A stretch of DNA of 41,341 nt from Candidatus Kaiserbacteria bacterium (GCA_007116405.1 SKIN01000038.1:1-41341), one strand, 5' to 3'. Positions 1-40,948 are shown, numbered from the stretch's first letter. Translations and numbers: made by a program. Notes: generated by a model not told the origin, from the sequence alone.

Positions 1-1779
1 GCCGGTACCACCGCGGGTGGTGGCAAGGGTTCCCTGCCAGAACGGTGAGAAGGTGTGGGTGTCGCCGATTGAGGTGATGGAAAGGCCGATGTTGGTGTCA
101 CTCGTGGTGGCGAAGGCCTGTGAGGAGGCGGTGAGATCATTAAGAGATTCAATGCCACTACTTACAGTACCAACTTGGTCCTCACTACAGAAGAACGTGC
201 CTGTCACACTATCATACAACAATTTGTCTGTGTTAGTTGCTGAACAGTTGACAAGTCCTGTTTGAAAAAAACCACCTGTAACAGCAAGCGTATCAACAGA
301 AGTAGTGCCAGTGAGAAGAATGCTACCGTCCGGAGTCACCGTTATAAGCGATGTGCCGATGATGGCAGTGCCGTCGGCTGCGTAATACGCCAATTGACCA
401 GCAGTACCTACTCCCACATCCCCCGATCCGCCAACGATAGTGGTACCTCCACCACCACCTGCAGCGCGAGCACTGATAATAGGGTTCTGAGGATCGCTGT
501 AGTCAATGGTGATGTTTCGCCCGGCAACAACGTTGTACAGTAAATTGGACCCAAAGACAGAACCTGCTCCCGCGTCTATGTCAGCACCATCGGTCGCGAC
601 GCCACCCGATGCCGTGAATAAGCCGGTTGTAGTTGCAGAACCATCAATGAGTGTATCGCCAGCAACAGAAAGAGATGCATTCATTATAGCGTTACCCTGC
701 ACAAAGATGTCAGAACCGAGTGTTGCACTACCCGACACCGCCATCGTGCCCCCAACGATAACCGAGCCGCCGACTGATGCCCCTGCGTCTACAGAAAGTG
801 CTCCGAAGGAACCTTGAGGTGCTCGTACCTGTCCCCCGAACAATCCTGTACCGGAAACCGTCAGACTGCCTCCGACCGACGCATCCTGCCCCAGTGTTGT
901 GGTGCCAACGACGAATAATTCGTCTTGAATGGAAACATTGGTACCGATTCGCAATGTCCTTGGGGTCGCCGTGGCTGCGGGTGGACGTGAAAGCAATACC
1001 ACCGGCCCTCTGGGCAATGCATCTAGTGAGTCCTCTCTCGTAAGTAAAGTATTGTCGACACGGACATCAGTAGAGGGTGTGTCTTGCTCCTGTGAAGGAG
1101 TCTCATCGCCACGACTAAACAGTCCCATGAACCAGGCACGTACCGATGATATGACATTTGCAGCCAGAGTATCTTCTGTTGCGGTGTCTTGAGCTATTGC
1201 ATCGTACTCATGTACACCATCGGTCTGATACTGTGTAGATGGATTAGAATCTTCCTTTACCCCGGTGCGAGTGATCATTGTAGCGGAATCCATGATCATG
1301 GAACCGACACTCGCAAACATTCCACGCACTGCATCAGGTTGTGAGAAAAACGTATACGATACTGCCACCAAAACAAGTGTCGCAAGGGACAGTTGGGCAG
1401 TCCTGCGCAGAGCTACAGCAAAAGTACCGAGGATACCGCTTGGAGATCGACGTATGTGTGATGCCGGTTCTGTGAGGGCATGTGTGGGACGTGATGATTC
1501 ATTATCTGTATCTTTCTGCGCGTCTATTCCCACGTTCCTTGCATACTCGGCGCGACGCTCAGCAGCCAGCTCCTCCCGTCGTCGTTGTTTCGCTAGTGCC
1601 ACTCCCTCCAAGTGCGCTGAGAGTGACTCATAGTTTACGTACCACACGTTACCGATCTTCCTGCCCTCTACTACGCCCGTTCGGCACAACCGAGAAACGT
1701 AGTCAGAAACAATACCTGCACGCGAGGCGGCCTCCTTGGAAGGTATCCAATTAATCTGTGGTGGAACGGGTTCGGGCAT
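1..1779 (-). CDS. Large membrane-anchored surface protein, 3'-partial (runs off the left edge): N-terminal MerR/excisionase-like HTH, one TM helix, then Gly/Ser/Thr-rich beta-helix or fibre-like repeats
   Basis: Absent from the supplied ORF track because it has no in-window stop. Manual translation from ATG at 1779 gives MPEPVPPQINWIPSKEAASRAGIVSDYVSRLCRTGVVEGRKIGNVWYVNYESL..., then TM LSLATLVLVAVSYTFF, then ...GSLTVSGTGLFGGQVRAPQGSFGALSVDAGASVGGSVIVGGTMAVSGSATLGSDIFVQGNAIMNASLSVAGDTLIDG.... I translated the 5' ~290 codons line by line without a stop and read the remaining ~300 codons to position 1 more quickly. An in-frame TAG lies 27 nt upstream of the ATG. The + strand track ORFs 17..1754 are antisense shadows. 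Confidence 0.8.
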   Translation of the reverse strand, partial: MPEPVPPQINWIPSKEAASRAGIVSDYVSRLCRTGVVEGRKIGNVWYVNYESLSAHLEGVALAKQRRREELAAERRAEYARNVGIDAQKDTDNESSRPTHALTEPASHIRRSPSGILGTFAVALRRTAQLSLATLVLVAVSYTFFSQPDAVRGMFASVGSMIMDSATMITRTGVKEDSNPSTQYQTDGVHEYDAIAQDTATEDTLAANVISSVRAWFMGLFSRGDETPSQEQDTPSTDVRVDNTLLTREDSLDALPRGPVVLLSRPPAATATPRTLRIGTNVSIQDELFVVGTTTLGQDASVGGSLTVSGTGLFGGQVRAPQGSFGALSVDAGASVGGSVIVGGTMAVSGSATLGSDIFVQGNAIMNASLSVAGDTLIDGSATTTGLFTASGGVATDGADIDAGAGSVFGSNLLYNVVAGRNITIDYSDPQNPIISARAAGGGGGTTIVGGSGDVGVGTAGQLAYYAADGTAIIGTSLITVTPDGSILLTGTTSVDTLAVTGGFFQTGLVNCSATNTDKLLYDSVTGTFFCSEDQVGTVSSGIESLNDLTASSQAFATTSDTNIGLSITSIGDTHTFSPFWQGTLATTRGGTG

Positions 1780-2248: not shown

Positions 2249-2509
2249 CTATGTAATTTCTGTGTATATTCTGATATTATTACCTTTTACGTACATGACC
2301 GCTTGCTCGAACTGGTAGGTCATGTCACCCTCCTGTGCGGTATGAACAACGATAGGCTCATTCCGAATGAGGGTGACGAAGTTGGCGTGCATAGGTAGTA
2401 CGTCAAAAGGTCCGTCACTGTTCTTTGACGATACGGCAGTCGCATCCCCTTCCCACACCACAGTTGTGGCCTTACTTATCCGCACCTTCAATGTCTCGTC
2501 TTCACTCAT
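2249..2509 (-). CDS. atpC: F-type ATPase epsilon subunit, short form (beta-sandwich domain only, 86 aa)
   Basis: It is the last gene after beta. The pattern LKVRISKATTVVWEGDATAVSSKNSDGPFDVLPMHANFVTLI matches the N-terminal epsilon fold (l.v.ivtP....f.g.v..v..p...GefgiLpgHap.it.l). There is no C-terminal helical hairpin. Confidence 0.75.
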   Translation of the reverse strand: MSEDETLKVRISKATTVVWEGDATAVSSKNSDGPFDVLPMHANFVTLIRNEPIVVHTAQEGDMTYQFEQAVMYVKGNNIRIYTEIT

Positions 2510-2518: not shown

Positions 2519-4730
<2,212 letters not shown>

Positions 4731-4743
<13 letters not shown>

Positions 4744-6179
4744 AACGATTGTAGTGGTGGAACAACCTCGTGCTCAACCTTGGCGAGGAACTTGTTCAGG
4801 TCTCTTTCTTTGGAAACCAGGTCACGTACCGATACGCATGCATCAGAACGCACGTATTCGAGGATGGGGTGGAGGTTCTTTGAGAAAAATGTAGCATCCT
4901 TGCCCGTACTAAAACTTGTAAAGACAAGTGCCAAAAGAACGACCTGAACATCCACAGGTAACCGCTCACCCTCATTTTGATTCATGAGTAAGCGTAGCAC
5001 CGACCCCATTGCAAGTATCGTTCGGGATGCTTCCGAGAGCTCGGACCCGAATTGTGTAAACCGCTCTTGCTCCTTGGCATCGGCAAGAAGTGTGGTGATG
5101 CTCGTGGCAAGCTGTTTTTGTATCACGGTATGTGCGTGCTTTCCGACACGGGTAACAGACTCTTGTTCAAGAATAGGTGGAAACGTACCCTGCGCATACA
5201 ATGCACTAGAGAACTGCAAATGGCCGTCTGTAGTACCCATGACGTTGGTCATGATCAAGTCTGTGGTAGCTTCAATATCCGTCTGTAATAGCGGAAGTAA
5301 TGTGATAGAACCACCTTGTTCGAAACTACCAGCGCGTTCGATAAGATGAGCCTGTTGGTAGAATATGTCGCCAGGATAACTTTCACGTCCAGGAAGACGA
5401 CCCTCAAGTAATGCTTTCTCCCGGAGATATTTAGCATGCGTATAAAGGTCGTCTAAGATCAGCACTACATCTTTTCCTTGCTCGGAGAAGTATTCTGCCA
5501 TGAACATCCCGACGGAGGGAGCGATCGTATTAAGAGGTGCTCCATCCTCGGATGTGCCCGCAATGATGTAGGTATACGCAGATGCACCTCCCTCAAATAG
5601 CACCTCTGCAAGGCGTCGGATCATCGCTCCTGATTTGCCGATAGTAGTGTAAATACAGACCGTGTCGGTGCCTGCTTGATTCCGGATAAGCTCCCTGCAA
5701 AAAGGTTCGACGCCACTCTGGATGGGACCCATGAGAAGTTGCCGTTGCCCCTTGGCTATCGGGAGGACCGCATCGACAAGCGCGTACCCGGACATTAGCT
5801 GACGCTGTATGGGTCCACGCCGAGCAAGATCACCCGCCTCACGCTCAAGCACGAGGGGCGCATTTCGAGGTGGCAAGGCCCCTTTCCCGTCAATTGGGTC
5901 ACCGAGCGGGTTGATGACTCGACCCATAAGAAAGTCACCGATAGCCAGCTGGTCCTCTTGCGCCCTAAGTTCAAACTGTTCCCCCGGACGCACATCACTT
6001 TGGTCAAGCAACACAGCCTCTATCGCGTCATGGGAGAGTCCGGTCACAAGCGCGCGCTCACCTTCACTATTCACAATGATGTCATGCACGCGCGCTGACG
6101 GAAGTCCCTCTATCGAAACCAAGTAGTGCTTTGTAGCGCGTACGATACCTATTTCCTTATTGTACAGTTGTTGCTCCAT
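4731..6179 (-). CDS. atpA: F-type ATPase alpha subunit with degenerate Walker A
   Basis: PIAKGQRQLLMGPIQSGVEPFCRELIRNQ aligns to E. coli alpha [29 protein letters not shown]. Also LILDDLYTHAKYLREKALLEGRLPGRESYPGDIFYQQAHLIERAG versus [45 protein letters not shown]. Confidence 0.93.
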
Positions 6180-6681
6180 GGAGATGTGTATTGAAGGTTT
6201 GCACTATTTGCTCTCGATCCTTCTCGATAAAGTAGTGAAGTGACAGGTCATGGTAAATGTGCTTCCAGATGATGCCACACCCACCGGTTGCGCGCGGGTC
6301 TATATGAAGCGACATGAGAATGTTCGGCTGGATATTAGCACGTAGCCATTTGCCAAAGCCTTCTATTTGCTCTGGTTTGAAGCGAACAGGCACATACAGC
6401 GTGACGGATGGCACGGTAGTGAGTTCTTCTTGAACTGTATCTAGCGCTTCGTAGACCATGATCGGTTGAATATCAGTGGTGTTGAAGTCGCGCTCCCACT
6501 CCTTGAGTGCATCAATGGTGTATCGGTCGCATTCACCCCGTACCACTTCCTCTAAAGTCCGCGTGCTTCCCTCAACAAATAGGCGCTCCCCATAGTACTT
6601 ACGCATAAGCCCGAGTCGCTCGACCAGAGCGTCGGTGGTATACGTGTTCTTGAGCATGATACTAATGATCTTGACGAGCAT
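6157..6681 (-). CDS. atpH: F-type ATPase delta (OSCP)-like subunit
   Basis: Sits between the b-like gene and alpha. The C-terminal half VTLYVPVRFKPEQIEGFGKWLRANIQPNILMSLHIDPRATGGCGIIWKHIYHDLSLHYFIEK follows the delta pattern (..l...q...i...l......v.l....D.sl.GG..i..gd.v.D.S). The N-terminal half is divergent. Confidence 0.7.
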   Translation of the reverse strand: MLVKIISIMLKNTYTTDALVERLGLMRKYYGERLFVEGSTRTLEEVVRGECDRYTIDALKEWERDFNTTDIQPIMVYEALDTVQEELTTVPSVTLYVPVRFKPEQIEGFGKWLRANIQPNILMSLHIDPRATGGCGIIWKHIYHDLSLHYFIEKDREQIVQTFNTHLHGATTVQ

Positions 6682-6690: not shown

Positions 6691-7551
6691 TTAGACGAAT
6701 ACCCCCCTACGCTTTGCTTCTTCTAGTGAGCGGTACACGAGGTCTGCTTGATCCTGTAATGACAGTTTCTTTTGCAATGCTATCTGTGCAGTCTCCTCTA
6801 TGAGGACCAGGATTCGCTCATTGACAAGACGCATTCGAGCCTCCCTGTATTTCCCTAATTCGTGAGAGAGGGTCGCAAACTCTTGTTCAATGTTGACCCG
6901 AAGCGCTTCATCGAGACCTTCTGCGACTTTGACGATCGAGTGGGCTGTTTCTTGTCCTATTTTACGCATCTCCTCCCTCACGACCTGAGCGTTCTTGTCG
7001 GATTCATTTGCTGCAGCCTCTTGAAGGGCAAGTGCAAGATGCTGTATCCCTTTCTCAACGTTCTCTATCTCAAGCGATAAACGGTCGAACAACTGACTTG
7101 ATTGACCCGTAAAACTCTCCATACTGTGCTTTGCCTCGTCTGCATTAAGAGCAACCCGCTGTTCGATGTTCTGAAGAGCTTCAACAAAACGACTGGTTGC
7201 TCGCATATGCTCTTTCTCTACCCCGTACGACAGCTCTTTGATGGACTTCTCGAGCTGAAAACGGTATGCATCGAGAAAGTGTTCTATGCTCTGCTTGTCC
7301 TCATGAATCGCTTTTATACGTTCACGCTCTATGGAATCACGTAGCGAGCGGGCCTCCGCCATTGCCTCGTCGACGATGATCTGCGCTCGTTCTTCAGCTC
7401 TGACTATTACTTCTTTTGCCTTCTCCGGAGTCAAGGTGACTCGCTGGCGATAGACCATGAGACCCAACACGACGATAAGCCCGAGCGTAATGAGCACCAT
7501 GAGCACAAGTGCTATCAGTAAGATGTGTGGTGAGTTTGCGATGGTATCCAT
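6691..7551 (-). CDS. ATPase b-like peripheral stalk protein, unusually long (286 aa): N-terminal TM plus about 240 aa of coiled coil
   Basis: TM ILLIALVLMVLITLGLIVVLGLMV, then Glu/Arg/Ala-rich heptad sequence. The C-terminus ERILVLIEETAQIALQKKLSLQDQADLVYRSLEE resembles the b C-terminus ([34 protein letters not shown]). The track start at 7593 is TTG; I prefer the ATG at 7551, 13 nt after the upstream stop. Confidence 0.6.
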   Translation of the reverse strand: MDTIANSPHILLIALVLMVLITLGLIVVLGLMVYRQRVTLTPEKAKEVIVRAEERAQIIVDEAMAEARSLRDSIERERIKAIHEDKQSIEHFLDAYRFQLEKSIKELSYGVEKEHMRATSRFVEALQNIEQRVALNADEAKHSMESFTGQSSQLFDRLSLEIENVEKGIQHLALALQEAAANESDKNAQVVREEMRKIGQETAHSIVKVAEGLDEALRVNIEQEFATLSHELGKYREARMRLVNERILVLIEETAQIALQKKLSLQDQADLVYRSLEEAKRRGVFV

Positions 7552-7564
7552 AATGTGCACGTTA

Positions 7565-8404
7565 TCAAGGAGCCATGATAATGGCGACGGCAACAGCGAA
7601 TCCTATGCCGCTAATAACAATAAGTAAGAAGGCGTTCCAAAGTACCATCGAACGGATCTGCGACCTGGCAAGTGGATTGCGACCAACGGATATGACGCTC
7701 TGGGAAAAGGCGTCTCCAAATCGACGTGCTGCGACGATGACCGTCCCCACTGCAACAATAGACGCGAGCAAGTACCGGAACATTTTGAAGAGGTCCAGAC
7801 CCCGTTCGCCGTCCGGCTGTGTTGAGCCGGGCATATATCCCAGTGCTGTCGTCGACGCAAGGAACGCGGAACTCTGGCCGCTTACGTACGGACCGATACG
7901 CAATGCTACAGGCACACTACCGACGCGAATGGTCCTACCTTCAAGGTCGAGAATATCTCCGGTCAGAACCATGTCCTCAAGAGCAAACCCCATGACGTAC
8001 GCTCCTTGGTCACGACTGATGCGCTGGCCTTTGCCCGCAATGTACGAGGTGGTTACCAGATCCCCTGCCAGTATAGGGCCTGTGGCGTCTGTCACGTTGA
8101 CCGAGACATTTCCATATCGAACAACAGGCACTGCACCCTCTTCATCAGCGCCATCTGTCATGTACATGACTGGTTCGAGTACAACAACACCAAACATCAT
8201 TTCGTCTTCAGGCAACTGGCTGGGGTGCACGGTTCCCGACTCGGCATCATACGAAACTATGTCACCGTCAATGACATCCCCACGAGCAACGAAGGGAGAT
8301 GCTACGGTGGCTTCAGGGCCGAACGAAACCGCCGTCGCGCTCAAAGGCACGACGACGAGTCCAATAAAGTACATAAAACAAGCAACGAGCCCTGCAGCCT
8401 TCAT
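7565..8404 (-). CDS. First gene of the ATPase operon: signal peptide plus about 200-aa beta-rich extracytoplasmic domain plus a C-terminal two-helix hairpin resembling ATPase subunit c
   Basis: Signal peptide MKAAGLVACFMYFIGLVVVPLSATA. The C-terminus SQSVISVGRNPLARSQIRSMVLWNAFLLIVISGIGFAVAVAIIM aligns with chloroplast c [44 protein letters not shown] (R-N/Q-P loop and the following IR conserved). The position of the essential Glu is Ile. Confidence 0.55.
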   Translation of the reverse strand: MKAAGLVACFMYFIGLVVVPLSATAVSFGPEATVASPFVARGDVIDGDIVSYDAESGTVHPSQLPEDEMMFGVVVLEPVMYMTDGADEEGAVPVVRYGNVSVNVTDATGPILAGDLVTTSYIAGKGQRISRDQGAYVMGFALEDMVLTGDILDLEGRTIRVGSVPVALRIGPYVSGQSSAFLASTTALGYMPGSTQPDGERGLDLFKMFRYLLASIVAVGTVIVAARRFGDAFSQSVISVGRNPLARSQIRSMVLWNAFLLIVISGIGFAVAVAIIMAP

Positions 8405-8410
8405 GAAAAC

Positions 8411-8419
8411 AGTATACCA
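8411..8419 (-). promoter_or_regulatory. Extended -10 promoter TGGTATACT, 6 nt upstream of ATG 8404 (leaderless ATPase operon mRNA)
   Basis: Minus strand reads TTGGTATACT-GTTTTC-ATGAAG. No SD sequence. Confidence 0.5.
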
Positions 8420-8499
8420 ATGGACTCAACGAAAAAGAACGCAAGGGCTGTGTACAGAGAACATTTTGCATCCGCCACAACCCCGCAACCAGCGATGAC

Positions 8500-9510
8500 T
8501 TAAGATAAAAGCAGATAGAGAAGGAGAAACATTGCGAAGACCACGAGCGCGCCTAGGACAGGAATGGCGAGTGAACGCTGCCTGTGCTCGCCCCTACGTA
8601 CGCTGCGAGTACCCTGATCGAAGGAACGATGTCCGTACGCATCAAGAGTGGCATCCCCCGCATCGATGCACAAGCGTGCATCACGCCTTGGCGCTCGACG
8701 ACCTGAGTGTTGTCTTGTCGCTGAGGCGATCACCACGCCGTCAACAGATACACTCTGTCTTGGTGACGCAGAGGAAGTGACCAAGGGCCGAGGTGTATCC
8801 GAGATATGATTCAAAATAGCGCCTGCATTCCTTCTTGAGTGCCTCTTAGGTCGCACGCCGGAGAGGGAGGCGGTTGAACGTTCACGCGCCAACAATGAAC
8901 GCGAGCGAATGGGTACAGTCTTCACTCCACCAACAACATCGCTCGGGACATCGTGCGCTTCCGTGTCTAAAGGTGTCTGGGGGGAGTCTTCGCTCTCAAC
9001 CGATCGTAGTAATGACTCTGAAACGAAGGGCTCGTAGCGAATGTCCGAGCGGACGAGAGGGTCAAGGGTTGCGTTCCTGCTTTTTTTTGGTGCCGGGAAG
9101 AGATCACCTGACCACACTTCAACATCAACCTCCGAGTGCTCTTCGGGGGGTATTTCCGCATACATTGGTGCCCCTCTTGAGGTCGGCGCGGAGAAATGCA
9201 TATCCTGACGATCGTCTTCTGTCGCTATTGCTCGGCTATCCGAAATCATTTGATTTTCTGTTGTTTTTTCGTCAGTCCGTCGACCTTGAACTCTCGGCTT
9301 CTTAGGGTTCTTTAGTGTGTAATGAACACCCAGCTTATGTTTCCGAATAGAGTCCTCAGACACATACCAACTTCTGCCAATGAGTTGCGCGTCGAGCTTA
9401 CCAGCACGGCACAGCTGCCCTACGTAGTCCTTTGTGTAGCCATACAACTGGGAAGCTCGTCCTGACGATACATATTTTCTCCCCTCAAGTACTATGGAGT
9501 CATCAGCCAT
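8500..9510 (-). CDS. Tail-anchored protein: N-terminal MerR/excisionase-like HTH, long low-complexity linker, C-terminal TM
   Basis: YVSSGRASQLYGYTKDYVGQLCRAGKLDAQLIGRSWYVSEDSI is paralogous to the N-terminus of the 1..1779 protein (shared S..AS...G...DYV..LCR.G......IG..WYV). C-terminal TM AIPVLGALVVFAMFLLLYLLL. Confidence 0.8.
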   Translation of the reverse strand: MADDSIVLEGRKYVSSGRASQLYGYTKDYVGQLCRAGKLDAQLIGRSWYVSEDSIRKHKLGVHYTLKNPKKPRVQGRRTDEKTTENQMISDSRAIATEDDRQDMHFSAPTSRGAPMYAEIPPEEHSEVDVEVWSGDLFPAPKKSRNATLDPLVRSDIRYEPFVSESLLRSVESEDSPQTPLDTEAHDVPSDVVGGVKTVPIRSRSLLARERSTASLSGVRPKRHSRRNAGAILNHISDTPRPLVTSSASPRQSVSVDGVVIASATRQHSGRRAPRRDARLCIDAGDATLDAYGHRSFDQGTRSVRRGEHRQRSLAIPVLGALVVFAMFLLLYLLLS

Positions 9511-9516
9511 GTGCTT

Positions 9517-9522
9517 AGTATA
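9517..9522 (-). promoter_or_regulatory. -10 hexamer TATACT, 6 nt upstream of ATG 9510 (leaderless)
   Basis: Minus strand reads GCAGTATATACT-AAGCAC-ATGGCTGAT. Confidence 0.45.
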
Positions 9523-9603
9523 TACTGCAATACGCTTACGGCGTTGCTCGATCAGGTATAGACTGTGGAAAACTCGACTGCACGATATCCTTTCTGGTTA
9601 CGC

Positions 9604-11034
9604 TCAGTTCTCGTTCAGTGCTTTCATTATAATCTCGGAAAGAATCTTAGGATCTGCCGAACCTTTCGTCATTTTCATTCCTTGACCTATAAGGAATTGT
9701 AATGATGATGCCTTTCCGTTGCGGTACTCTGTGGCTACTGCGGCGTGCTCTTCTATGACTCGCATCGCCACATCGCGCAGAGCGTCGATATCGGATACCT
9801 TGATAAGTCTGTGTTTACGCGCTATCTCGTTTGGGTCTCCGCCCTCTGTTGCCCAGATCGCAAGTGCATCCTTTGCTCCACGCGATGATACAGCTTCTGT
9901 GCGTAGCATGTCGATGAGGATCGCGAACTCGGCCGCATCCATCGAACTGATACTTTTGCTCTTGCCGCCTTTTTTACTGAGGAGGCCGAGCAGATCAGTG
10001 GTCAAGTAGTTTGCGACGAGATTTCGAACGTCATCATTGACATTCTTCAGACTCTGCAGGACAGACTCATAGAACACATTTAGCTCTGTGTCGCTTACAA
10101 GCACTTCGACCACACTAGAGTGCATGCCCTGCTTGGTATATCGAACTCTTCTATCCCAAGGAAGTTCCGGTATCGTATCGAGCAGATTAGCATTAGAAAA
10201 CTTGGGTATCTCGGATACTATCACTTTTGGCAGGTCCGGGTCCGGGAAATACCTGTAGTCGTGAGAGCTTTCTTTTGCTCGCTGCGAAAACGTCTTTTGC
10301 CTATTCTCGTCCCACCCTCTCGTCTCCTGCAATATCGACTCTCCACGAGAGAGGGCTTCCTTTTGTCGCTTTATCTCATACGCGATCGCTTGTTCAACGG
10401 CTTTGAAGCTGTTGAGGTTCTTCACCTCTACCTTTGTACCGAGAGGTTCTCCAGGGGCTGACAAGGAAATATTTGCTTCGATCCTCATTTCTCCCTTCTC
10501 TAGGTTTGCACGGCTCGCGTCAAGATATCTAAGCAGCAATCTGAGGTCCCGTGCAAATGATACAGCGGTCTGGGCGTCATGTATGACCGGCTCCGTGACC
10601 AACTCCATAAGGGGGACACCCGCCCTATTGAAATCCACAATGCTCGTATCTGTCCCGTGTGACGACCTGGCCGTATCCTCCTCCAGATGGATGCGTGTGA
10701 CAGCTACGGGTCCAATGGCGCCACCGGAGACAAGGGGGTAGGCGTACTGACTGATCTGATAGTTTTTCGGTATGTCAGGGTAGTAGTAATTTTTGCGATC
10801 AAACTCGGTGAAATCCGCGATGGTGCCGCCGATAGCGGTACCGACACGCAACACCTGGAATACCGCTTCCTCGTTGATGACCGGCAACGTACCCGGATGC
10901 GCCATACACACAGGACAAACGTGTGTATTCGGAGCGACGTTGTCAGGCTCATTCGCGCAGCCACAGAACATCTTGCTGTGTGTATTCAGCTCCGCGTGTA
11001 TCTCAAGTCCTATCGTAGGTACTAGTTCCTTCAT
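9604..11034 (-). CDS. gatB: Asp/Glu-tRNA(Asn/Gln) amidotransferase subunit B
   Basis: MKELVPTIGLEIHAELNT..SKMFCGC, DRKNYYYPDIPKNYQISQY, GVPLMELVTEP, EANISL, KNLNSF, and a C-terminal GatB/YqeY tail. The track start at 11097 adds 21 non-conserved residues, so I use the ATG at 11034. Confidence 0.95.
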   Translation of the reverse strand: MKELVPTIGLEIHAELNTHSKMFCGCANEPDNVAPNTHVCPVCMAHPGTLPVINEEAVFQVLRVGTAIGGTIADFTEFDRKNYYYPDIPKNYQISQYAYPLVSGGAIGPVAVTRIHLEEDTARSSHGTDTSIVDFNRAGVPLMELVTEPVIHDAQTAVSFARDLRLLLRYLDASRANLEKGEMRIEANISLSAPGEPLGTKVEVKNLNSFKAVEQAIAYEIKRQKEALSRGESILQETRGWDENRQKTFSQRAKESSHDYRYFPDPDLPKVIVSEIPKFSNANLLDTIPELPWDRRVRYTKQGMHSSVVEVLVSDTELNVFYESVLQSLKNVNDDVRNLVANYLTTDLLGLLSKKGGKSKSISSMDAAEFAILIDMLRTEAVSSRGAKDALAIWATEGGDPNEIARKHRLIKVSDIDALRDVAMRVIEEHAAVATEYRNGKASSLQFLIGQGMKMTKGSADPKILSEIIMKALNEN

Positions 11035-12580: not shown

Positions 12581-14548
12581 TCACTCCTTCCCGGGTGTCT
12601 TGCATATCCCAAGCTCAGTGAGTTTTTCGATGTATTCAAGAAGTGTTATCACGTACGTGGCATGGCTCCAGGTGAGCGGCATTACCGACGTCGGGAACCC
12701 GCCTACTGCATCATACTGCTCTGCAAGCATGCCTGCTTCATTACATTTACTCAGCACCCACTGAAGCCGCTCTTTGACCGGTTCAAGGTCCTTCGGTCTC
12801 TTCGCCTTCGCTATCTCATACTCAGCAAGCCACAGTGTGGTGAGTATCCAGGGATTTCCCGGAACACCTTGCGCGGTACGGAAATAATTGTCACCTTCGT
12901 AGCGCGCAATACCACCTCCGGCAGACAGCGCTTTGTTTGTCTGTTCATAGATCTTGAACAATCTCGGATCATCGACCGACAAAATATTGTATTTAAAGAG
13001 ACCATAAAAACTTGATACATCGATGGTCCTGTCCTTCACCATGGTGCCGTGTTCATGGCGAATCGACTTCAGCGCTGTGCCATCTGTGTCGATAAGGTGC
13101 GTGAGAATGCCCTCTTCTATTTCTCGAGCTGCGTTATTCCAACGCTTTGCAGCAACGTGTTTGCCGAGCATCTCGGCAAAACCAGCCGCTGTCTTTAGCC
13201 CCGCGTGCACTGTACAGGTAGTATATGTGAAGGTCGCGAACTGCTCCTCCCAGAGGTCATGACTTGGTAATGGAAGTCCTGTCTTCTTATCTCGGTAACG
13301 CGTGAGAAAATCGGCGACTCGGCGAATGTATGAATTGTAGAGACCCTCGATAAATTCAAGATCGCGCGTGTGCTCGTAGTGGGCTCCGAGTGTGACGAGT
13401 GTGATGGCACTCTCGTCCTCCTGTATGGGCGGTTGCGCTCTTCCGTCCCTCACCCAAGGATGCCATGAACTCCCTAGTGACTTGTCAGAACGATATTTGT
13501 GCAACAGATACCCGTCTTCAGTGAGCACTTCATTATAGAAATGATGGAATTCCTTACTCGCGCTGACGTGACCGGCGCGCAAAAAGGCAAGCATGATGTA
13601 GGCACCATCTCGGGGCCACGAGTAATTGTACGTATCTCGTCCCCACTGGAGGATGGATGAGTCTCCTGAGGCGATGATGGCACCTTTGTTGTCGGTGTGT
13701 GTTCGCATCACAAAGAGTGAACGCCGATAAAGGTTGATGTACTCCTGCTCAATACCACACGTATCGATGTCAATACGGTTCACCCATGCCCTCCAGAAAT
13801 CACGTGTCGTGCGACGAAGGTGCTCAGGACCTCGTGTGAGTATATCGCGATGCATCTTCTCTACCTTACTGTAGCTTTCGCCAGCAGCAAGCCAATACGA
13901 AACGGTACGAGTCCCCTTCCCGCGCATGAAAAGTGAGATGCCGAGAACCGAATCGACACTGCCGTGTTCGACAGCACTCTTCTGGAGCATGCCGTCATCA
14001 GCATCCCGCCAGGTTCCCTCTTTCCCTTCGATACCAAGCAGTCCTACGCTGTAATCATCAAAATAGGCGTCATTCGTGCGAGCGGAGGCGAGAAATACAC
14101 GACGACCCTTGTAGTGAATGATTGCATGCAGCTCGGGGGAGTAGTACGCGGTGTCGCCTCGATGTGATTCACTTATATGGAACTGTTGATTGAAAAATAC
14201 TTTAATATTCCTGTCCTCTTCAAAAAGATTCATTACTTCTATGTGACGTACAAAAATATTATGTTCGTTGTAGACGATGTCTGAAAAACGAAGTTCCACG
14301 CCGATCTTCTCATTTGTCGCAACCACCGACGCGACCAATGTGTCTTGCTCATAGTTTGTGCTAACACGAAACCCCCCATTGGAGAACCAATGGGTCTTGT
14401 CACCGGTGAAAACACCGATGCGATGCATAAGTTGATCCCCCACATGGTTCTCGAGTCCCACTTGGGGGAAATGGAAATCACGAACCTGACCCCACTCATC
14501 ATAACAGACAAGCACATTCCCGTTTCCGAGCACTAGTGAGCGGGCCAT
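12581..14548 (-). CDS. Glycoside hydrolase family 15 (glucoamylase / glucodextranase-like)
   Basis: N-terminus MARSLVLGNGNVLVCYDEWGQVRDFHFPQVGLENHVG is typical of prokaryotic GH15. The (alpha/alpha)6 part carries SWPRDGAYIMLAF, HDLWEE and LAEQYD. Confidence 0.9.
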   Translation of the reverse strand: MARSLVLGNGNVLVCYDEWGQVRDFHFPQVGLENHVGDQLMHRIGVFTGDKTHWFSNGGFRVSTNYEQDTLVASVVATNEKIGVELRFSDIVYNEHNIFVRHIEVMNLFEEDRNIKVFFNQQFHISESHRGDTAYYSPELHAIIHYKGRRVFLASARTNDAYFDDYSVGLLGIEGKEGTWRDADDGMLQKSAVEHGSVDSVLGISLFMRGKGTRTVSYWLAAGESYSKVEKMHRDILTRGPEHLRRTTRDFWRAWVNRIDIDTCGIEQEYINLYRRSLFVMRTHTDNKGAIIASGDSSILQWGRDTYNYSWPRDGAYIMLAFLRAGHVSASKEFHHFYNEVLTEDGYLLHKYRSDKSLGSSWHPWVRDGRAQPPIQEDESAITLVTLGAHYEHTRDLEFIEGLYNSYIRRVADFLTRYRDKKTGLPLPSHDLWEEQFATFTYTTCTVHAGLKTAAGFAEMLGKHVAAKRWNNAAREIEEGILTHLIDTDGTALKSIRHEHGTMVKDRTIDVSSFYGLFKYNILSVDDPRLFKIYEQTNKALSAGGGIARYEGDNYFRTAQGVPGNPWILTTLWLAEYEIAKAKRPKDLEPVKERLQWVLSKCNEAGMLAEQYDAVGGFPTSVMPLTWSHATYVITLLEYIEKLTELGICKTPGKE

Positions 14549-14580
14549 GATACAACTAAAAGATCATTACGAAACCTTTT

Positions 14581-15027
14581 CTACTTACAACACGTGCTTT
14601 TGAGTGCGCGTATAGTAGTAGTTCGGGTCTTTGCTTTCTCAACACGCCTTGCGCATGCATCATCTTTGAGGCAGTCGCGTATCCAGCGCGCAAAATCGTT
14701 ACCGTCACGACGAGTATGGTATGCGAACTGCGCCTCCGACATGTCTTTGAGAGCACTGCGGAGGTGTTCAAGAGACTGTACTACTGGTCCATCACAGACC
14801 CAGAACGATTCCTCCGGACTACATGTCCGTACGCAGATGCACCCTGCTTGTTTCTTACCTGCCTGCTTTTTTGTTGCCTTAGCCTTAGGTTGTACTACCG
14901 CTACGGCGACCTTCTTTGAGACAAGGGCCTTCTTTGGGGCCTTGGATGCAGCACTCGAGGTTTTCTTGTTCGGCGCTTTCTTTGCTGGGGTCCTTTTAAC
15001 TACTGATGATTGTTTCTTGGTTGGCAT
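14581..15027 (-). CDS. Hypothetical protein: histone-H1-like Lys/Ala-rich N-terminal tail (about 61 aa) plus a Cys-rich C-terminal domain
   Basis: MPTKKQSSVVKRTPAKKAPNKKTSSAASKAPKKALVSKK...KAKATKKQAGKKQAG, then CICVRTCSPEESFWVCDGPVVQSLEHLRSALKDMSEAQFAYHTRRDGNDFARWIRDCLKDDACARRV...STCCK (8 Cys). Tightly packed between the GH57 and GH15 genes. Confidence 0.7.
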   Translation of the reverse strand: MPTKKQSSVVKRTPAKKAPNKKTSSAASKAPKKALVSKKVAVAVVQPKAKATKKQAGKKQAGCICVRTCSPEESFWVCDGPVVQSLEHLRSALKDMSEAQFAYHTRRDGNDFARWIRDCLKDDACARRVEKAKTRTTTIRALKSTCCK

Positions 15028-15033
15028 GGTGTG

Positions 15034-16311
15034 TTATGAGGTTAATGCTTGTAATACTCCGCGGGTCTTATGTCTGAACGATTGCCAGATACCCCGCTTC
15101 ACAGGCTGTGGCCTTTTGGACGTCTGCGTACGTAACCGTACGTCATTCAAAACATTCATGTAAGCGATGTATGCTTCATACGGTGACTCGTAGGGATTGA
15201 AATAGGCGTGCACATCACCGTCCTGAAACCACTTCGTACACATGTAATAGAAATGGTCGGAGGTTGACAGGCGTCGCCAGTCACGCAGTAACACCTCATC
15301 ACCTGTATTTTTTACGTCTTTCTCGAGCGCAAAGAACGCACGTAGGGCATCATGTTGTATGGCGTTGCTCTTCCATGCAGACAGATCACGCTCAACGTCA
15401 GCCCATGAGACATAGTGCGGAGCATCTACTTCGCCGACGGATTCAAACGTTGACATTGCCTCCGTGGGGGTCATGAAAGTGTTATCGCTATGCCTGAGAA
15501 TCTCGCGTGGCATCTCTCGTATGAAATGGAATATACCGGTGTCTTCCCATTGATGCTCGCCAAACGTCTCATAATCCATGAACAAGTTGATGACATGCCC
15601 GTCACCATTATGCGCATTCACCCATTGTGCAAACTTAGGGGCGGTAAGCGGCCACTCTTCCCAGCCTTTGTTGCTGAATCGGAAAGCAATATCATCTGAG
15701 AGCTTGTAGTGTTTGAGTAGTACACGTAATGTCGGATCGTTCTTTGCATGATACACGTACGTGGGTTTACGCCATCCAAGCAGATGGTCAGCACCCTCCG
15801 CTAGCATGCCTAGGTATCCCATATCTGCCACCTGCTCGGCAATGTCATTACGGTAGATAAGCTCGGTGTTGCGAAACACGTACGGCGTAACTCCAAAGAG
15901 GTCCTTGACTTTGTCGGCATGAAGTTGTACTTGCTCACGAAACTCCTCCGGGGACTCAAGGAACGACAGCGAATGGTAATATGTCTCGGAGAGTATCTCC
16001 ACCCTACCTGTCGCAACCAGACGCTTGAACGATTCAATGACTTCGGGGGTATACTCTTCAAACTGTTCTAGTGCGATGCCGGATATGGAGAATGAGGCCT
16101 TGAAATCAGGATAATCATCAAGGTTTCGAAGTAACGCCTCGTTAGCAGGTAAGTAGCACTTATCTGCGACCTTACGTGCGATACGGGCATTATTGGTATC
16201 CCGTTCACTCGAATCATTGAAGTATTCCGAATCATTTCCGATATCGAAGAACCTGTATCGCTTGATGCGACGTGGCTGATGTACTTGAAAATAAAAACAG
16301 ACTGCACTCAT
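15034..16311 (-). CDS. Glycoside hydrolase family 57 (alpha-amylase / alpha-glucan-acting enzyme)
   Basis: MSAVCFYFQVHQPRRI, SETYYHSL, FMDYETFGEHQWEDTG. The ATG at 16311 overlaps the upstream TGA (ATGA), so I prefer it to the track start at 16383. Confidence 0.88.
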   Translation of the reverse strand: MSAVCFYFQVHQPRRIKRYRFFDIGNDSEYFNDSSERDTNNARIARKVADKCYLPANEALLRNLDDYPDFKASFSISGIALEQFEEYTPEVIESFKRLVATGRVEILSETYYHSLSFLESPEEFREQVQLHADKVKDLFGVTPYVFRNTELIYRNDIAEQVADMGYLGMLAEGADHLLGWRKPTYVYHAKNDPTLRVLLKHYKLSDDIAFRFSNKGWEEWPLTAPKFAQWVNAHNGDGHVINLFMDYETFGEHQWEDTGIFHFIREMPREILRHSDNTFMTPTEAMSTFESVGEVDAPHYVSWADVERDLSAWKSNAIQHDALRAFFALEKDVKNTGDEVLLRDWRRLSTSDHFYYMCTKWFQDGDVHAYFNPYESPYEAYIAYMNVLNDVRLRTQTSKRPQPVKRGIWQSFRHKTRGVLQALTS

Positions 16312-17540
16312 ATGTTGGTTCGTGAAAGTGATTCTGTTAGCTTCTTGTAAACCATCATACACCGCTCTGCTACCCTCCTCCAAACTTGACCGCGCGCCTC
16401 ACGCATACCTTCGGTCGCAAGCGTCTCCTTTAGGCTCGGATTATCCAGTACCGATACCATCTTGTTGGCCATCTCGTCCGTGTCCCAGAAGTCTGTCTTC
16501 AGCGCATTGCGGATCACTTCGGCGACTCCCGACTGTTTACTGATGAGCACCGGCGTGCCATTCAATAGGGACTCGAGCGGAACGATACCAAATGGTTCTG
16601 AGACTGAAGGCATAACTACAAGGTCTGCGGCACCGTAGAGTCGCGCGAGTTCCTTTTCTCGCAGGAATCCCGTGAAGAGTACTTTGTCACCAATGCCGAG
16701 CTCTGCAGAACGGTCGATGATCTGCTTGGCCATATCTCCTGAACCCGAGATGACAAACAATGTGTTGGGGCGATGTGTGATGACCTTTCTTGCGGCGTTG
16801 AGGAAGTAGTCGGGGCCCTTTTGAAGGGTGAGTCGCCCGACGAAGAGGACTACGCCCCATCCCGAATCCTTGAGACGTTTCATCTCGGCTTCTGTTGCAC
16901 TCGAGACCGCGGTGTCATCAGGATCAATGCCATTGTGCACGACATCAACCTTGTCAGGTGAGATACCGTAGTGGGCCACGATGACGCGCTTGGTGTACTC
17001 GGATACTGCGATTATCCTGTCCGCCTCATGCATACCTCGACGCTCTACGTCATACACGGCCTGATTGACCGACCCGAACCCTGTCCGGTCAAACTCGGTC
17101 GCGTGGACATGTGCAACAAGCGGAAGACCCGTTACCTTCTTTGCGGCAATACCTGCAGGATAGCAAAGCCAGTCATGCACATGAATGACATCAGCCGGAT
17201 ATTGAAGTGCGACCAATGGGGCAAGAGCGGCATATCGTAACACCTCATCAAAAAGACTGGGACCATACCGAAGCTCCGGGTATTGACCACGCAGGAAGTT
17301 AAGCTGCTCTTGTGTCAGGTAACCGGAGTTGAATTGTCGTGCCTGCAGTGAATCGAGAGGGTTCGCCTCGTCAGCGAAGACTATCTTTGCACCGGACGGC
17401 AGTACGGGAAATTTGCGCGGGAGGACAAAACGGACGTCCGCACCCTCAGCAACAAGTCCACGAGTAAGCCCATAGCAAGCTACGCCAAGCCCGCCACTGT
17501 TGCTCGGCGGGAACTCCCATCCATACATGAGAACTCGCAT
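16308..17540 (-). CDS. GT-B glycosyltransferase, archaeal-type glycogen/starch synthase-like
   Basis: MRVLMYGWEFPPSNSGGLGVACYGLTRGL, VHDWL, and C-terminal PSVSEPFGIVPLESLLNGTPVL (E-x7-E). Confidence 0.85.
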   Translation of the reverse strand: MRVLMYGWEFPPSNSGGLGVACYGLTRGLVAEGADVRFVLPRKFPVLPSGAKIVFADEANPLDSLQARQFNSGYLTQEQLNFLRGQYPELRYGPSLFDEVLRYAALAPLVALQYPADVIHVHDWLCYPAGIAAKKVTGLPLVAHVHATEFDRTGFGSVNQAVYDVERRGMHEADRIIAVSEYTKRVIVAHYGISPDKVDVVHNGIDPDDTAVSSATEAEMKRLKDSGWGVVLFVGRLTLQKGPDYFLNAARKVITHRPNTLFVISGSGDMAKQIIDRSAELGIGDKVLFTGFLREKELARLYGAADLVVMPSVSEPFGIVPLESLLNGTPVLISKQSGVAEVIRNALKTDFWDTDEMANKMVSVLDNPSLKETLATEGMREARGQVWRRVAERCMMVYKKLTESLSRTNI

Positions 17541-27937: not shown

Positions 27938-29056
27938 ATGAAGATCGTCATCGCTACACCGGTATTTCCACCCGAACTGCATGCGGACGCGCAACGCCTC
28001 TTTGGCCTTGCGACACACCTTGCGAAGGAGCATACGGTACACGTGGTCACGTACGGAACAAGTCACGTGCCGACAGCCGATGTCTCCGTCACCTGTGTAG
28101 ACCGGCATGTACCGCTACGCAAGCGTATTCGGGCGTTCACGAAAGCACTTATTGAAGCTTGCGACGGCGCTGATGTTCTATACGTACACGGCAGCGGCAT
28201 CATAGGACTCTCCGCGCTACGGGCACGGCGCAAGCGCCGCGTACGACTCGTGATACACGTACCACATGACGCGGTATGGGAGTACGCGTCTCGATACTTC
28301 AATGAACCCCCATCGGAGCTGCTGGAGGATCTCTACGCTGACATGAGCGTCCGTGCACTACTGCTTGGGTACGCACAACGGTTCTTGTTGCGTCGGGCTG
28401 ACACCATCATAACCGAGACACAACGGCATGCCCGCCTCCTCGAACGAAGATACGGCATTAAACCGGGTGTCTGTGCTGTGGCTCCCACTCGGGCGCAGGA
28501 CCCCGTTGTGCTGCCGTTTACTCCTGCACGTCGTGTGCATAAACTACTCCTCACCATCCCCTCCGACGAGAGCAGAATACTTGCCGGGGAGTTGCACGCG
28601 CTCGAGGTGCTGCAGCAGCGATACCCGGATACGGAACTCGTGCTCTTGCGGACGACATGCTCGAACTTTAGAACGGAGGAAGCAAGCGGAAAGAACATAC
28701 GCTGCCTCAGTGCCACGACTCGTGCCGAACGCTGGTACGAAGCACAGACCGCCGACGCACTCGTGATGCTCGACCACAGCTTTGCCGACCAACGCGCGCT
28801 CGTGGACCTCCTTGGGATGGGGATACCCATCGTCGCATCAGAGACCGGACTGTGTGCGGAACTCTTTGGTCTCAATGTCGTACATGGGTATGAACCGGAG
28901 AAACCGGATACCTTGACCGAAGTGCTCGCGGGTCTCTTTGATGATCCGGCACAAGGTGAACGCAGTGTCCGCGCGGGCACCGCTCTCCTTAGCGAACGCC
29001 ACAGTGCAACACAACACATGCAGGATGTATTGGCCATCTTTCAAAAAGGATCATGA
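27938..29056 (+). CDS. GT-B (GT4-like) glycosyltransferase
   Basis: MKIVIATPVFPPELHADAQRLFGLATHLAKEHTVHVVTYG and C-terminal LLGMGIPIVASETGLCAELFG. Confidence 0.85.
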   Translation: MKIVIATPVFPPELHADAQRLFGLATHLAKEHTVHVVTYGTSHVPTADVSVTCVDRHVPLRKRIRAFTKALIEACDGADVLYVHGSGIIGLSALRARRKRRVRLVIHVPHDAVWEYASRYFNEPPSELLEDLYADMSVRALLLGYAQRFLLRRADTIITETQRHARLLERRYGIKPGVCAVAPTRAQDPVVLPFTPARRVHKLLLTIPSDESRILAGELHALEVLQQRYPDTELVLLRTTCSNFRTEEASGKNIRCLSATTRAERWYEAQTADALVMLDHSFADQRALVDLLGMGIPIVASETGLCAELFGLNVVHGYEPEKPDTLTEVLAGLFDDPAQGERSVRAGTALLSERHSATQHMQDVLAIFQKGS

Positions 29057-30048: not shown

Positions 30049-30092
30049 GAGATATTCCGGTCGCACGGGAGGATCCTGCCTCTTCTCACCTG

Positions 30093-31544: not shown

Positions 31545-31548
31545 TGTG

Positions 31549-33600: not shown

Positions 33601-33606
33601 ACCGTA

Positions 33607-33612
33607 AGTATA
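33607..33612 (-). promoter_or_regulatory. -10 hexamer TATACT, 6 nt upstream of ATG 33600 (leaderless)
   Basis: Minus strand reads CTCATTTATACT-TACGGT-ATGACACCC. Confidence 0.45.
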
Positions 33613-33699
33613 AATGAGAAGGGTATCTCGACAAAGGCGCCTGGCGGTATTGTCTGCGCCGTTCTTTCAGGTCACTCGACTGTAGCGCGCCGTGACGCG

Positions 33700-35112: not shown

Positions 35113-35341
35113 GTTCACCGACGGGATGCGTCTCCGGCTCGGAAGGCCCATGCTCCCGGTGGGAGAGGTCTTCTTGCTTGCGCTCCCTCCTCCGTTCGTC
35201 GAGGCGGAAGAACAGCGCGAGCATTGTAATGACGGCACCGAGGGCAAACACGACGTATTCCTTCAATGACCTGGGGATGCCGAGGAGCGGCGTGATGAAC
35301 ACAAAAATACCAAGTATGAACAGCAAGGTCGTCTTACGCAT
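35078..35341 (-). CDS. Small two-TM membrane protein with a charged His/Glu-rich tail
   Basis: MRKTTLLFILGIFVFITPLLGIP...VVFALGAVITMLALFF, then RLDERRRERKQEDLSHREHGPSEPETHPVGEHEH. It has its own leaderless-type promoter. Confidence 0.6.
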   Translation of the reverse strand: MRKTTLLFILGIFVFITPLLGIPRSLKEYVVFALGAVITMLALFFRLDERRRERKQEDLSHREHGPSEPETHPVGEHEHVQSADREQ

Positions 35342-35348
35342 ACGCCAT

Positions 35349-35354
35349 ATTGTA
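35349..35354 (-). promoter_or_regulatory. -10 hexamer TACAAT, 7 nt upstream of ATG 35341 (leaderless)
   Basis: Minus strand reads CAGTGTACAAT-ATGGCGT-ATGCGTAAG. Confidence 0.4.
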
Positions 35355-35395
35355 CACTGTATCGCTTTGAGTGCGAAATATGGGGTCCACTGGGG

Positions 35396-36079: not shown

Positions 36080-36085
36080 ACGGAG

Positions 36086-36094
36086 AGCATAGCA
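36086..36094 (-). promoter_or_regulatory. Extended -10 TGCTATGCT, 6 nt upstream of the rsmI ATG (leaderless)
   Basis: Minus strand reads AACCTGCTATGCT-CTCCGT-ATGCAGGCA. Confidence 0.45.
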
Positions 36095-40947: not shown

Positions 40948-40948
40948 A

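Follow-up and report, generated by a model that had tools for sequence, protein, structure and literature searches.

The question raised by the locus described here is what an F-type ATPase could still do when its ring-type subunit lacks the ion-binding carboxylate and carries a large domain outside the membrane. The locus lies in a stretch of 41,341 nucleotides from Candidatus Kaiserbacteria bacterium (GCA_007116405.1 SKIN01000038.1:1-41341), the whole of which is called the window below and provides all coordinates unless another locus is named. On its minus strand, positions 7565..8404 encode a protein of 279 residues, here termed c*, which was delimited from the open reading frame (ORF) list, homologue searches and an AlphaFold2 model, and which is the first gene of a cassette in the order atpE-F-H-A-G-D-C. 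A preliminary description of this DNA had recognised in c* a subunit c-like helical hairpin without the essential carboxylate, fused to a secreted domain, and had argued that such a protein is not a known ATP synthase component; in agreement with this, no description of such a protein, or of such a cassette, was found in Pfam, NCBIfam or the searchable literature. Judged from the sequences, the cassette appears to be an F-type ATPase derivative that has been repurposed from ion coupling and is widespread in a major bacterial radiation. The reading that we favour, and to which we would assign a probability of roughly 0.55, is that hundreds of species of Patescibacteria possess an F-type-derived ATPase that translocates no ions and would instead deliver ATP-driven torque to an extracellular crown and surface fibres.

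This reading depends in the first place on the identity of the hairpin. Translation of 7568-7780 on the minus strand reproduces exactly the 71 C-terminal residues singled out in the preliminary description, which correspond to residues 209-279 of c*, and the entire c-type hairpin, as delimited by profile, fold and translation evidence, extends over residues 205-279 (7568..7792, minus strand). In the AlphaFold2 model, which was built with 111 homologues and has a mean predicted local distance difference test score (pLDDT) of 88.3, the two helices, 205-242 and 244-277, are joined at G241-R242-N243-P244, bearing out the two helices and the polar R-N-P loop that had been noticed at the outset. For a single c* sequence the match to PF00137 reaches only 14 bits (E 0.063) against a Pfam cut-off of 24 bits, and none of 111 full-length family members matches this model at E<=0.01; the similarity is thus remote and becomes clear only with profile methods. 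Likewise, a search of NCBIfam at E<=1 gave no match for c*, nor for the protein encoded at the atpF position or the helix-turn-helix (HTH) proteins discussed below. By contrast with the single-sequence result, a hidden Markov model (HMM) of the family, when searched against all PDB sequences, returned eight matches, all eight being F-type c subunits, the best of which had an E value of 0.005 and covered the entire hairpin. Alignment of the hairpin family by hhalign with nine canonical c subunits, whose sequences may contain small errors, gave a score of 37.8 over 67 columns (probability 93%, E 3-4e-7), a value about 15 standard deviations higher than those of 60 column shuffles (9.5 +/- 1.9, maximum 14.8), with the reversed alignment scoring 12.9. 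The profile similarity to subunit c anticipated in the preliminary description is therefore present at the level of families and stays under threshold for the single sequence.

Structural comparison and gene position point in the same direction. The modelled hairpin matches, in Foldseek searches, the c subunits of chloroplasts, Spirulina, mycobacteria, yeast, bovine and Escherichia coli enzymes with TM values of 0.74-0.86 at a root-mean-square deviation of about 2 A, and several relatives are labelled by JGI as 'F0F1-type ATP synthase membrane subunit c/vacuolar-type H+-ATPase subunit K'. The c* gene occupies the atpE slot, directly upstream of genes for b-like, delta-like, alpha, gamma, beta and epsilon proteins. 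On the evidence of profiles and models, the hairpin is genuinely, if distantly, homologous to F-type subunit c, and it falls outside that family by the curated Pfam threshold. Common to both proteins are a pair of helices and, between them, a cytoplasmic loop of the form R-(Q/N)-P; helix 2 of c* also has a conserved Gly that aligns with the Gly of the YGL motif of F-type subunit c, and in both the N- and C-termini lie on the outer side of the membrane. They differ in that c* possesses about 200 additional N-terminal residues, comprising a signal peptide, a phage-type beta domain and a linker, in the score under the Pfam gathering cut-off, in the lack of an atpB gene in or near the operon and, above all, in the residues on which ion transport depends.

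In canonical c subunits the ion-binding carboxylate is provided by Asp61 in E. coli and by Glu in most others, and to our knowledge all characterised F/V/A rotor rings use a membrane-embedded carboxylate. HMM alignment of c* with the chloroplast and Spirulina c subunits places this carboxylate opposite an aliphatic column, the equivalent residue of the window protein being Ile262 (7619..7621, minus strand), 20 residues after the loop Arg. That an Ile stands at the carboxylate position, within a second helix free of acidic residues, had been stated in the preliminary description and is upheld by this alignment and by the absence of any Asp or Glu from helix 2 of the window protein (R247-P279). 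Importance attaches to the question of whether this is a peculiarity of one copy. Among 334 distinct family members, the residue at +20 is I in 109, V in 95, L in 67, A in 29, F in 16, G in 10, S in 4, T in 3 and M in 1, and in none of them is it Asp or Glu; past the loop, acidic residues are confined to +9, which lies at the membrane boundary, and in rare cases to +15. Given the lack of D/E at this position in all 334 members, together with the invariant GRNP loop, the loss of the carboxylate is, as far as the sequences tell, ancient and fixed across the family, and the alternative that the window copy represents a local degenerate is excluded.

The sole conserved polar residue inside helix 2 is Asn257 (7634..7636, minus strand), at +15 from the loop Arg. 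In the same 334 sequences this position is occupied by N in 292 (87%), H in 15, D in 8, S in 8, Q in 7, A in 2, and E and G in 1 each; it lies five residues closer to the cytoplasmic loop than the canonical carboxylate position. The loop itself, G241-R242-N243-P244-L245-A246 (7667..7684, minus strand), is closely conserved in the family alignments, with G241, R242, N243 and P244 invariant in 111 aligned sequences, L245 and A246 present in at least 90%, and xGRNPLA found in 312 of the 334 members. The R-Q/N-P loop of canonical c subunits contacts gamma and epsilon and, by analogy, the GRNP loop of c* would be expected to do the same. Helix 1, for which the family consensus is RYxLAxxVAxxxxxxxxxxFG, does not contain the GxGxGxG (or AxAxAxA) packing motif in c* (ASIVAVGTVIVAARRFG; RYLLASIVAVGTVIVAARRFG), just as had been observed initially, and in this, as in the missing Asp/Glu (334/334), c* differs from F-type subunit c.

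The second component on which ion translocation depends, subunit a, is likewise not in evidence. Neither the cassette nor the roughly 10 kb on either side contains a multi-transmembrane a-like gene (atpB) in any of 83 related loci or in the window, and the same search range contains no canonical c gene free of an ectodomain; a Pfam scan of the remaining window genes detected no other ATPase subunits. Two candidates for a substitute of subunit a were considered and rejected, namely a recurrent neighbour with seven transmembrane helices, which is ComEC-like, is encoded on the opposite strand and is flanked by comEA, leuS and argS, and a small protein with four to five transmembrane helices, which lies outside the cassette. 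Inspection by eye of the transmembrane helix of the b-like protein revealed no conserved charged residue that could stand in for the subunit-a arginine. Since the cassette lacks subunit a and the hairpin lacks a carboxylate, the complex should be unable to couple rotation to the flow of H+ or Na+. Complexes without subunit a reportedly do assemble: in human rho-0 cells, which are devoid of the mitochondrial-DNA-encoded a and A6L subunits, and in E. coli atpB mutants, F1, the stalk and the c-ring are said to come together and to hydrolyse ATP. These complexes reportedly do not translocate protons, and they would show that such an assembly is physically viable. They differ from the form considered here in being defective or vestigial states in which the c carboxylate is kept, whereas the form found in the candidate phyla radiation (CPR) is conserved and evolved, with a modified c.

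Whatever became of the ion path, the catalytic and stator genes are kept. All seven cassette genes lie on the minus strand and are tightly packed, with overlaps at four of the six gene junctions, including one of 29 nt between c* and the gene that follows it. This next gene (6691..7593), at the atpF position, encodes a b-like peripheral-stalk subunit whose 300 residues make it longer than canonical b and comprise one N-terminal transmembrane helix and then an extended helical part; the single sequence has no Pfam match, but its family profile finds 8j0s_b (E 5e-5) and 9o19_X (E 1e-3) in the PDB among coiled-coil noise. At the atpH position (6157..6681) lies a gene for a delta/OSCP-like subunit of 174 residues, for which neither Pfam nor NCBIfam gives a match with the single sequence, whereas 18 of the 19 top PDB matches of the family profile are delta/OSCP proteins (best E 9e-4, C-terminal domain). 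Of the two stalk genes, the identification of b, as judged from these profiles, is the weaker. The beta subunit (465 residues, 2519..3916; PF00006, E 6e-58) scores 447 bits against TIGR01039, for which the cut-off is 463, and its catalytic motifs are intact; since, of the 67 family betas, 62 have the Walker A motif GGAGVGKT and 66 have GERxREG, beta can be taken from its motifs to be catalytically competent.

The alpha subunit (482 residues, 4731..6179; PF00006, E 2e-51) keeps the arginine finger, which reads TRVG in the window and [TS]R[VI]G in all 71 family alphas. Its non-catalytic P-loop is variable in the family and degenerate in the window copy (GPIQSGVEPF, alpha residues 151-160), and the non-catalytic sites of the window lineage probably no longer bind nucleotide; other lineages of the family retain GxxxxGKT in this Walker A motif. 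Gamma (287 residues, 3880..4743; PF00231, E 5e-26) matches TIGR01146 with an E value of 3e-19, under the cut-off. Epsilon (86 residues, 2249..2509), of which PF02823 covers residues 7-84, consists of the N-terminal beta-sandwich alone, the C-terminal helical domain being gone, and the family median is similarly short at 89 residues. In canonical bacterial epsilon it is this C-terminal domain that inhibits ATP hydrolysis.

The distribution of the family indicates how far this arrangement extends. A word-index search yielded 136 relatives of c*, and a profile search of 1.84 billion cluster representatives (50% identity) yielded 853 at E<=1e-30 and 9,019 at E<=1e-10; in a scan of one genome per GTDB species, relatives are encoded in at least 532 genomes. 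The informative lineage names are those of Parcubacteria/Paceibacterota (Kaiserbacteria, Sungbacteria) and Microgenomates (Gottesman-, Davies- and Chisholmbacteria), many records of metagenome-assembled genomes carrying automatic labels, for example 'uncultured Gammaproteobacteria', that we judged unreliable. When ORFs were called and clustered in 84 sequence sources, that is 83 fetched related loci and the window, members of the c* family were recovered from 82, b-like genes and alpha/beta each from 73, delta-like genes from 71 and gamma from 68. The order of the cassette is fixed, and the seven genes are retained even for a relative at 27% identity. One assembly, that of Gottesmanbacteria GW2011_GWA2_43_14, contains two complete and divergent cassettes (LCFP01000017.1 and LCFP01000013.1; loci L037 and L038), between which the identity is 51% for c*, 32% for b, 37% for delta, 54% for alpha, 43% for gamma and 65% for beta. 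The presence of two divergent cassettes in one assembly is not a housekeeping pattern.

The part of c* that has no counterpart in F-type subunit c precedes the hairpin, the order of domains being signal peptide, beta ectodomain, linker and c-type hairpin. Residues 1-23 (MKAAGLVACFMYFIGLVVVPLSA; 8336..8404, minus strand) form a hydrophobic helix (2-23) in the AlphaFold2 model and agree with the family consensus; the helix looks like a Sec signal peptide, with probable cleavage after SATA, and in the family alignment A-Q ends the consensus just ahead of the beta domain. The extracytoplasmic beta domain (residues 33-172; 7889..8308, minus strand) is all-beta from 34 to 172 in the model, at a pLDDT of about 97. 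It is followed by a linker (residues 173-204; 7793..7888, minus strand) in which a short helix, 176-188, leads into a disordered tether, 189-204; here the pLDDT falls to 46-53 at residues 181-200 and below 50 at 189-199, and the family alignment is correspondingly gappy and variable in length. The secreted, beta-rich N-terminal part proposed in the preliminary description thus takes shape, in the model and in Foldseek comparisons, as a signal peptide and a beta domain of about 140 residues.

The fold of this domain is one otherwise associated with phage particles. Against the PDB, Foldseek matched it to the outer shell of Borrelia phage BB1, to XM1 gp53 and to the Pam3 cement protein (8pkh, 7kmx, 8hdt) with E values of 1e-5 to 4e-4, a probability of 1.0 and TMt of 0.42-0.54, and against BFVD it matched uncharacterised phage proteins, some of them named 'preneck appendage' or 'tail protein', with E values of 1e-11 to 1e-8. 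At the level of sequence the relationship is fainter: PF23982 (XM1_gp53) gives 17.5 bits with the window c*, for a cut-off of 27, and is found under threshold in 23 of 111 members at E<0.01 (best E 2.9e-5), and four family members searched against PHROG had no match. The c* beta domain accordingly shares a common fold with phage cement/decoration and tail/appendage modules (PF23982, PF09956, PF22758), and differs from them in being cellular, in having a c-type hairpin as its membrane tether, in belonging to an ATPase operon, and in a sequence similarity to the phage cement families that stays under the Pfam thresholds.

The orientation of the domain is indicated by a set of natural fusions. 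In L081 (Sungbacteria; 9314-10618), L032 (Kaiserbacteria; 8858-10717) and P0119, the signal peptide is replaced in frame by a cytoplasmic HTH_17 domain and one transmembrane helix, giving the order HTH, transmembrane helix, beta domain, hairpin. In these fusions the beta domain must be outside, and, by sequence and model, it faces the outside, whether by way of a signal peptide or of an HTH-transmembrane segment. The same fusions tie to the system the separately encoded HTH-transmembrane protein whose gene lies upstream of c* in 30 loci. In the window this gene (8500..9510, minus strand) encodes 336 residues with an N-terminal HTH_17-like domain (HTH_17, E 8e-4), a long low-complexity region and a C-terminal transmembrane anchor.

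On the other side of the cassette a second type of membrane-anchored protein recurs. Directly after epsilon, 43 of 67 loci have a large ORF on the same strand (480 to >1,600 residues, often cut by the end of the contig), and most of these 43 encode a cytoplasmic domain of DNA-binding type, one transmembrane helix and a huge repetitive extracellular part. In the window the gene (1..1779, minus strand) is followed as an open frame of at least 593 residues that is cut by the left edge; it has an N-terminal HTH_17-like motif (IPSKEAASRAGIVSDYVSRLCRTGVVEGRKIGNVWYV), which was called by sequence motif only, Pfam giving no match on the window copy, then one transmembrane helix and a fibrous region of at least 400 residues rich in Gly, Thr, Ser and Val. 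According to Pfam, the cytoplasmic domain is MerR in Daviesbacteria-type loci, HTH_17 in Parcubacteria-type loci and integrase SAM-like (Phage_int_SAM) in Gottesmanbacteria, while collagen triple-helix repeats are present in the extracellular part of one such protein and a bactofilin-like beta-helix in that of another. Furthermore, near four cassettes of Microgenomates-type loci the beta domain of c* recurs inside proteins of 850-1,400 residues (L001, 16637-20788, minus strand; L061, 3947-6529, minus strand; L068, 1-3201, plus strand; L047, 3-3554, plus strand). The giant protein of L061 begins with two MerR-like HTH domains, and that of L068 contains SSLRYKNNV, which was recognised by eye and which we take to be a tail-spike-like intramolecular-chaperone motif.

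How could these parts operate together? On the reading that we favour, ATP hydrolysis in F1 would turn gamma, epsilon and a c* ring against the b/delta stalk, with the GRNP loop docking the ring to gamma/epsilon. Torque would then cross the membrane to a crown of ectodomains, such that the output would be mechanical and not electrochemical, and the crown would probably pass it on to the giant membrane-anchored fibre proteins encoded beside the cassette. A plausible purpose is work at the cell surface, for example host attachment, movement or envelope remodelling. What is retained in the cassette is a competent F1, a gamma/epsilon rotor, a b/delta stator and a c-type hairpin with its docking loop; from this we infer the formation of a ring, its rotation, the crown, the coupling to fibres and the physiological purpose.

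Several considerations weigh against this reading. The assembly of c* into a ring, its binding of gamma and epsilon and its rotation are predicted only from the invariant loop and the operon context. A flexible tether of variable length is a poor transmitter of torque unless the ectodomains lock together, and without subunit a the membrane element of the stator would be reduced to the single transmembrane helix of the b-like protein, leaving the rotor no obvious membrane partner against which to turn. The link to the fibre genes is one of adjacency only, and their MerR, HTH_17 and integrase SAM-like cytoplasmic domains would equally fit membrane-tethered regulators. Finally, the absence of atpB is established only within about 10 kb of each cassette. 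A more far-reaching version of the torque-delivering reading, which we put forward tentatively and would on balance doubt, is that much of the CPR possesses a hitherto unrecognised class of membrane-spanning rotary machine, in which F1, the stalk and a carboxylate-free c-type ring would use ATP to spin a phage-derived crown and giant fibres, the whole constituting an ATP-powered surface organelle for grabbing, moving on or probing hosts.

The main rival, rather unlikely in our judgement, dispenses with rotation. On this view c* would be a static platform or anchor, and the F1-like head would exert a push-pull action across the membrane or serve the assembly or export of fibres, in the manner of the FliI/FliJ ATPase of type III export or of FtsEX-type mechanotransmission. 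The flexible linker to the ectodomain, the lack of a subunit a as bearing and stator partner, and the conserved fibre gene next to the cassette, which fits a role in assembly or export, all speak for such an arrangement, as does the distant kinship, in itself expected, of alpha/beta to the ATPases of type III secretion systems in NCBIfam. It is difficult to reconcile, however, with the conservation of a complete b-like and delta-like stalk, the sole known role of which is to hold alpha3beta3 against torque, and with the retention of gamma, epsilon and the invariant c-loop; moreover, c-rings have, as is established, no known protein-conducting lumen. Another possibility, which we consider quite improbable, is an ion-coupled synthase or pump that draws its subunit a from a gene at some other place in the genome and binds the ion at an unconventional site, for example the Asn, His or Asp at +15. 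In its favour are the conservation of one polar site in helix 2 (N in 292 of the 334, with H, D, Q or E in 31 more), the limit of about 10 kb on the search for atpB and the routine practice in CPR genome papers of interpreting these genes as an 'F-type ATPase', whether complete or partial, tied to the proton motive force. Yet the carboxylate which, by established knowledge, every characterised ring uses is absent in 334/334, Asn can be neither protonated nor deprotonated and lies on another helical face and at another depth than the canonical site, the canonical order minus atpB is kept exactly in about 70 loci from very divergent lineages, each protomer bears a bulky ectodomain, and the cassette is duplicated in one genome.

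Two further alternatives would deny the cassette or its hairpin any such role. That it is what remains of an ATP synthase decaying in reduced genomes, in which the hairpin and its fusion have no selected function, is suggested by the reduced state of CPR genomes, the degenerate non-catalytic P-loop of alpha in the window lineage and the scores of alpha, beta and gamma under the NCBIfam equivalog cut-offs. We nevertheless regard decay as barely credible, for the seven genes are intact, tightly packed and mostly overlapping, the invariant residues persist family-wide at an overall identity of 27-30%, the catalytic motifs are retained, at least 532 species carry the cassette, and one genome has it as two paralogous copies. 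A generic two-helix membrane anchor with a coincidental likeness to c could likewise explain why a single sequence scores under the Pfam threshold, hydrophobic hairpins being compositionally alike, but this explanation is effectively refuted by a profile-profile score so far above both the column-shuffled and the reversed controls, by PDB matches to c subunits and to nothing else, by the invariance of the R-N-P loop and by the location of the gene exactly at the atpE position beside atpF- and atpH-like genes.

The torque-delivering reading finds precedents in the mycoplasmas, where Type 2 and Type 3 F1-like ATPases have been proposed to move no ions and to transmit ATP-driven force across the membrane to surface proteins (PMC12994834, PMC3369863, PMC11864180, PMC7004002). 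Of these, the Type 3 F1-like X0 (MSC_0618-0624 / MMCAP2_0575-0581) is needed for antibody cleavage by the MIB-MIP system, and the Type 2 G1 (MMOB1610-1670) is the gliding motor of Mycoplasma mobile. As in the CPR cassette, these are F-type-derived ATPases in host-dependent, genome-reduced bacteria with large surface proteins nearby. The mycoplasma clusters comprise seven genes and include a protein with 12 transmembrane helices and a small cytoplasmic protein, with no homologue of b or delta (PMC12994834, PMC3369863), and their Protein 5 combines a signal peptide and a large domain with two C-terminal transmembrane helices that a short loop connects (PMC3369863, PMC12994834, PMC11864180). By this published description Protein 5 and c* are alike in architecture. 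In these papers Protein 5, at 85-127 kDa, is considered only as a candidate element of the stalk or partner of gamma, and none of them describes it as c-like (PMC3369863, PMC12994834, PMC11864180). The CPR cassette differs from the mycoplasma clusters in possessing b-like and delta-like genes and in lacking the 12-helix protein. Comparison of the catalytic subunits with NCBIfam models is consistent with this distinction: alpha scores 185 bits with the MSC_0619 model (cut-off 520) and 245 bits with that of MMOB1660 (cut-off 600), as against 300-323 bits, also under the cut-offs, with the atpA models, and beta scores 340 and 371 bits with the MSC_0618 and MMOB1670 models, as against 447 with atpD. 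On these scores the CPR cassette looks analogous to the mycoplasma Type 2/3 systems and not a member of them, that is, an independent derivation closer to F1Fo.

The N-ATPases (alt_F1F0) offer a second comparison, since these, too, are divergent bacterial F-type operons. In N-ATPases subunit a is retained, the c subunit has the full Na+/H+ site, and AtpQ and AtpR are present in addition. The CPR cassette, in contrast, has no subunit a and no carboxylate, and its proteins score lower with the alt_F1F0 models than with the canonical ones, namely 293 bits with TIGR03324 (cut-off 750), 401 with TIGR03305 (752) and 15.8 with TIGR03166 (100).

Other features of the window and of related loci may be mentioned briefly. 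An ORF of 307 codons on the plus strand (7575-8498), longer than c*, is rejected as a shadow ORF, all homology and synteny being on the minus strand; a naive longest-ORF caller chose it over c*, and the locus may consequently be misannotated. In public records the relatives of c* are entered as 'hypothetical protein' or, occasionally, as plain 'subunit c'. Promoter- and terminator-like sites around the operon are no commoner than in shuffled sequence, so that transcription units are judged here by gene packing alone. Scanning the window for Rfam families and tRNA genes gave no matches; region 1-2248, which looks poor in genes, does not encode RNA and holds the 5' part of the large minus-strand gene described above. 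The other window genes belong to CPR housekeeping functions and include gatB, obg, secA, murB, Mur ligases, glycogen-type enzymes and an O-antigen-ligase/TPR protein. Upstream of obg, gatB and the cassette, 12581-17540 (minus strand) carries a glycogen/alpha-glucan cluster (GH15, GH57 and GT4/GT5 starch-synthase-like), an arrangement found likewise in L002. From about 28000 to 41341 the G+C content climbs from ~0.50-0.52 to 0.55-0.59, and this part may be a mosaic or acquired segment; within this high-G+C third lie a gene for a secreted protein with LTD and PKD domains (30093-31544), and a homologue, by weak matches, of VirD4/TraG-like coupling proteins (31549-33600), and the Mur ligases follow this stretch. 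In mostly Daviesbacteria-type loci the cassette divergently adjoins leuS, a small gene, comEA and, where the flank reaches, a ComEC-like gene (L048, L059, L061, L063, L064, L069-L071, L073, L077, L079, L082 and L083), an adjacency that may represent lineage synteny with no evident functional link.

For annotation, the consequence concerns a family of at least 850 clusters at 50% identity, labelled hypothetical or, occasionally, plain subunit c. If the ring is indeed ion-free and subunit a is lacking, the proton motive force that has been deduced from these genes would be wrongly deduced for hundreds of species, and this complex would not offer the cells concerned any ATP-linked route to a membrane potential. 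Should the more tentative picture of a surface organelle prove true, the genes designated 'F-type ATP synthase' in these organisms would contribute nothing to either proton motive force or ATP synthesis. Since the homology of each part is still readable, the cassette would provide a useful intermediate for understanding conversions of rotary motors and for re-examining the mycoplasma 'Protein 5'. For the biology of the CPR bacteria and their hosts, it would supply a distinctive predicted structure, with an F1 head inside the cell, a crown outside and fibres nearby.

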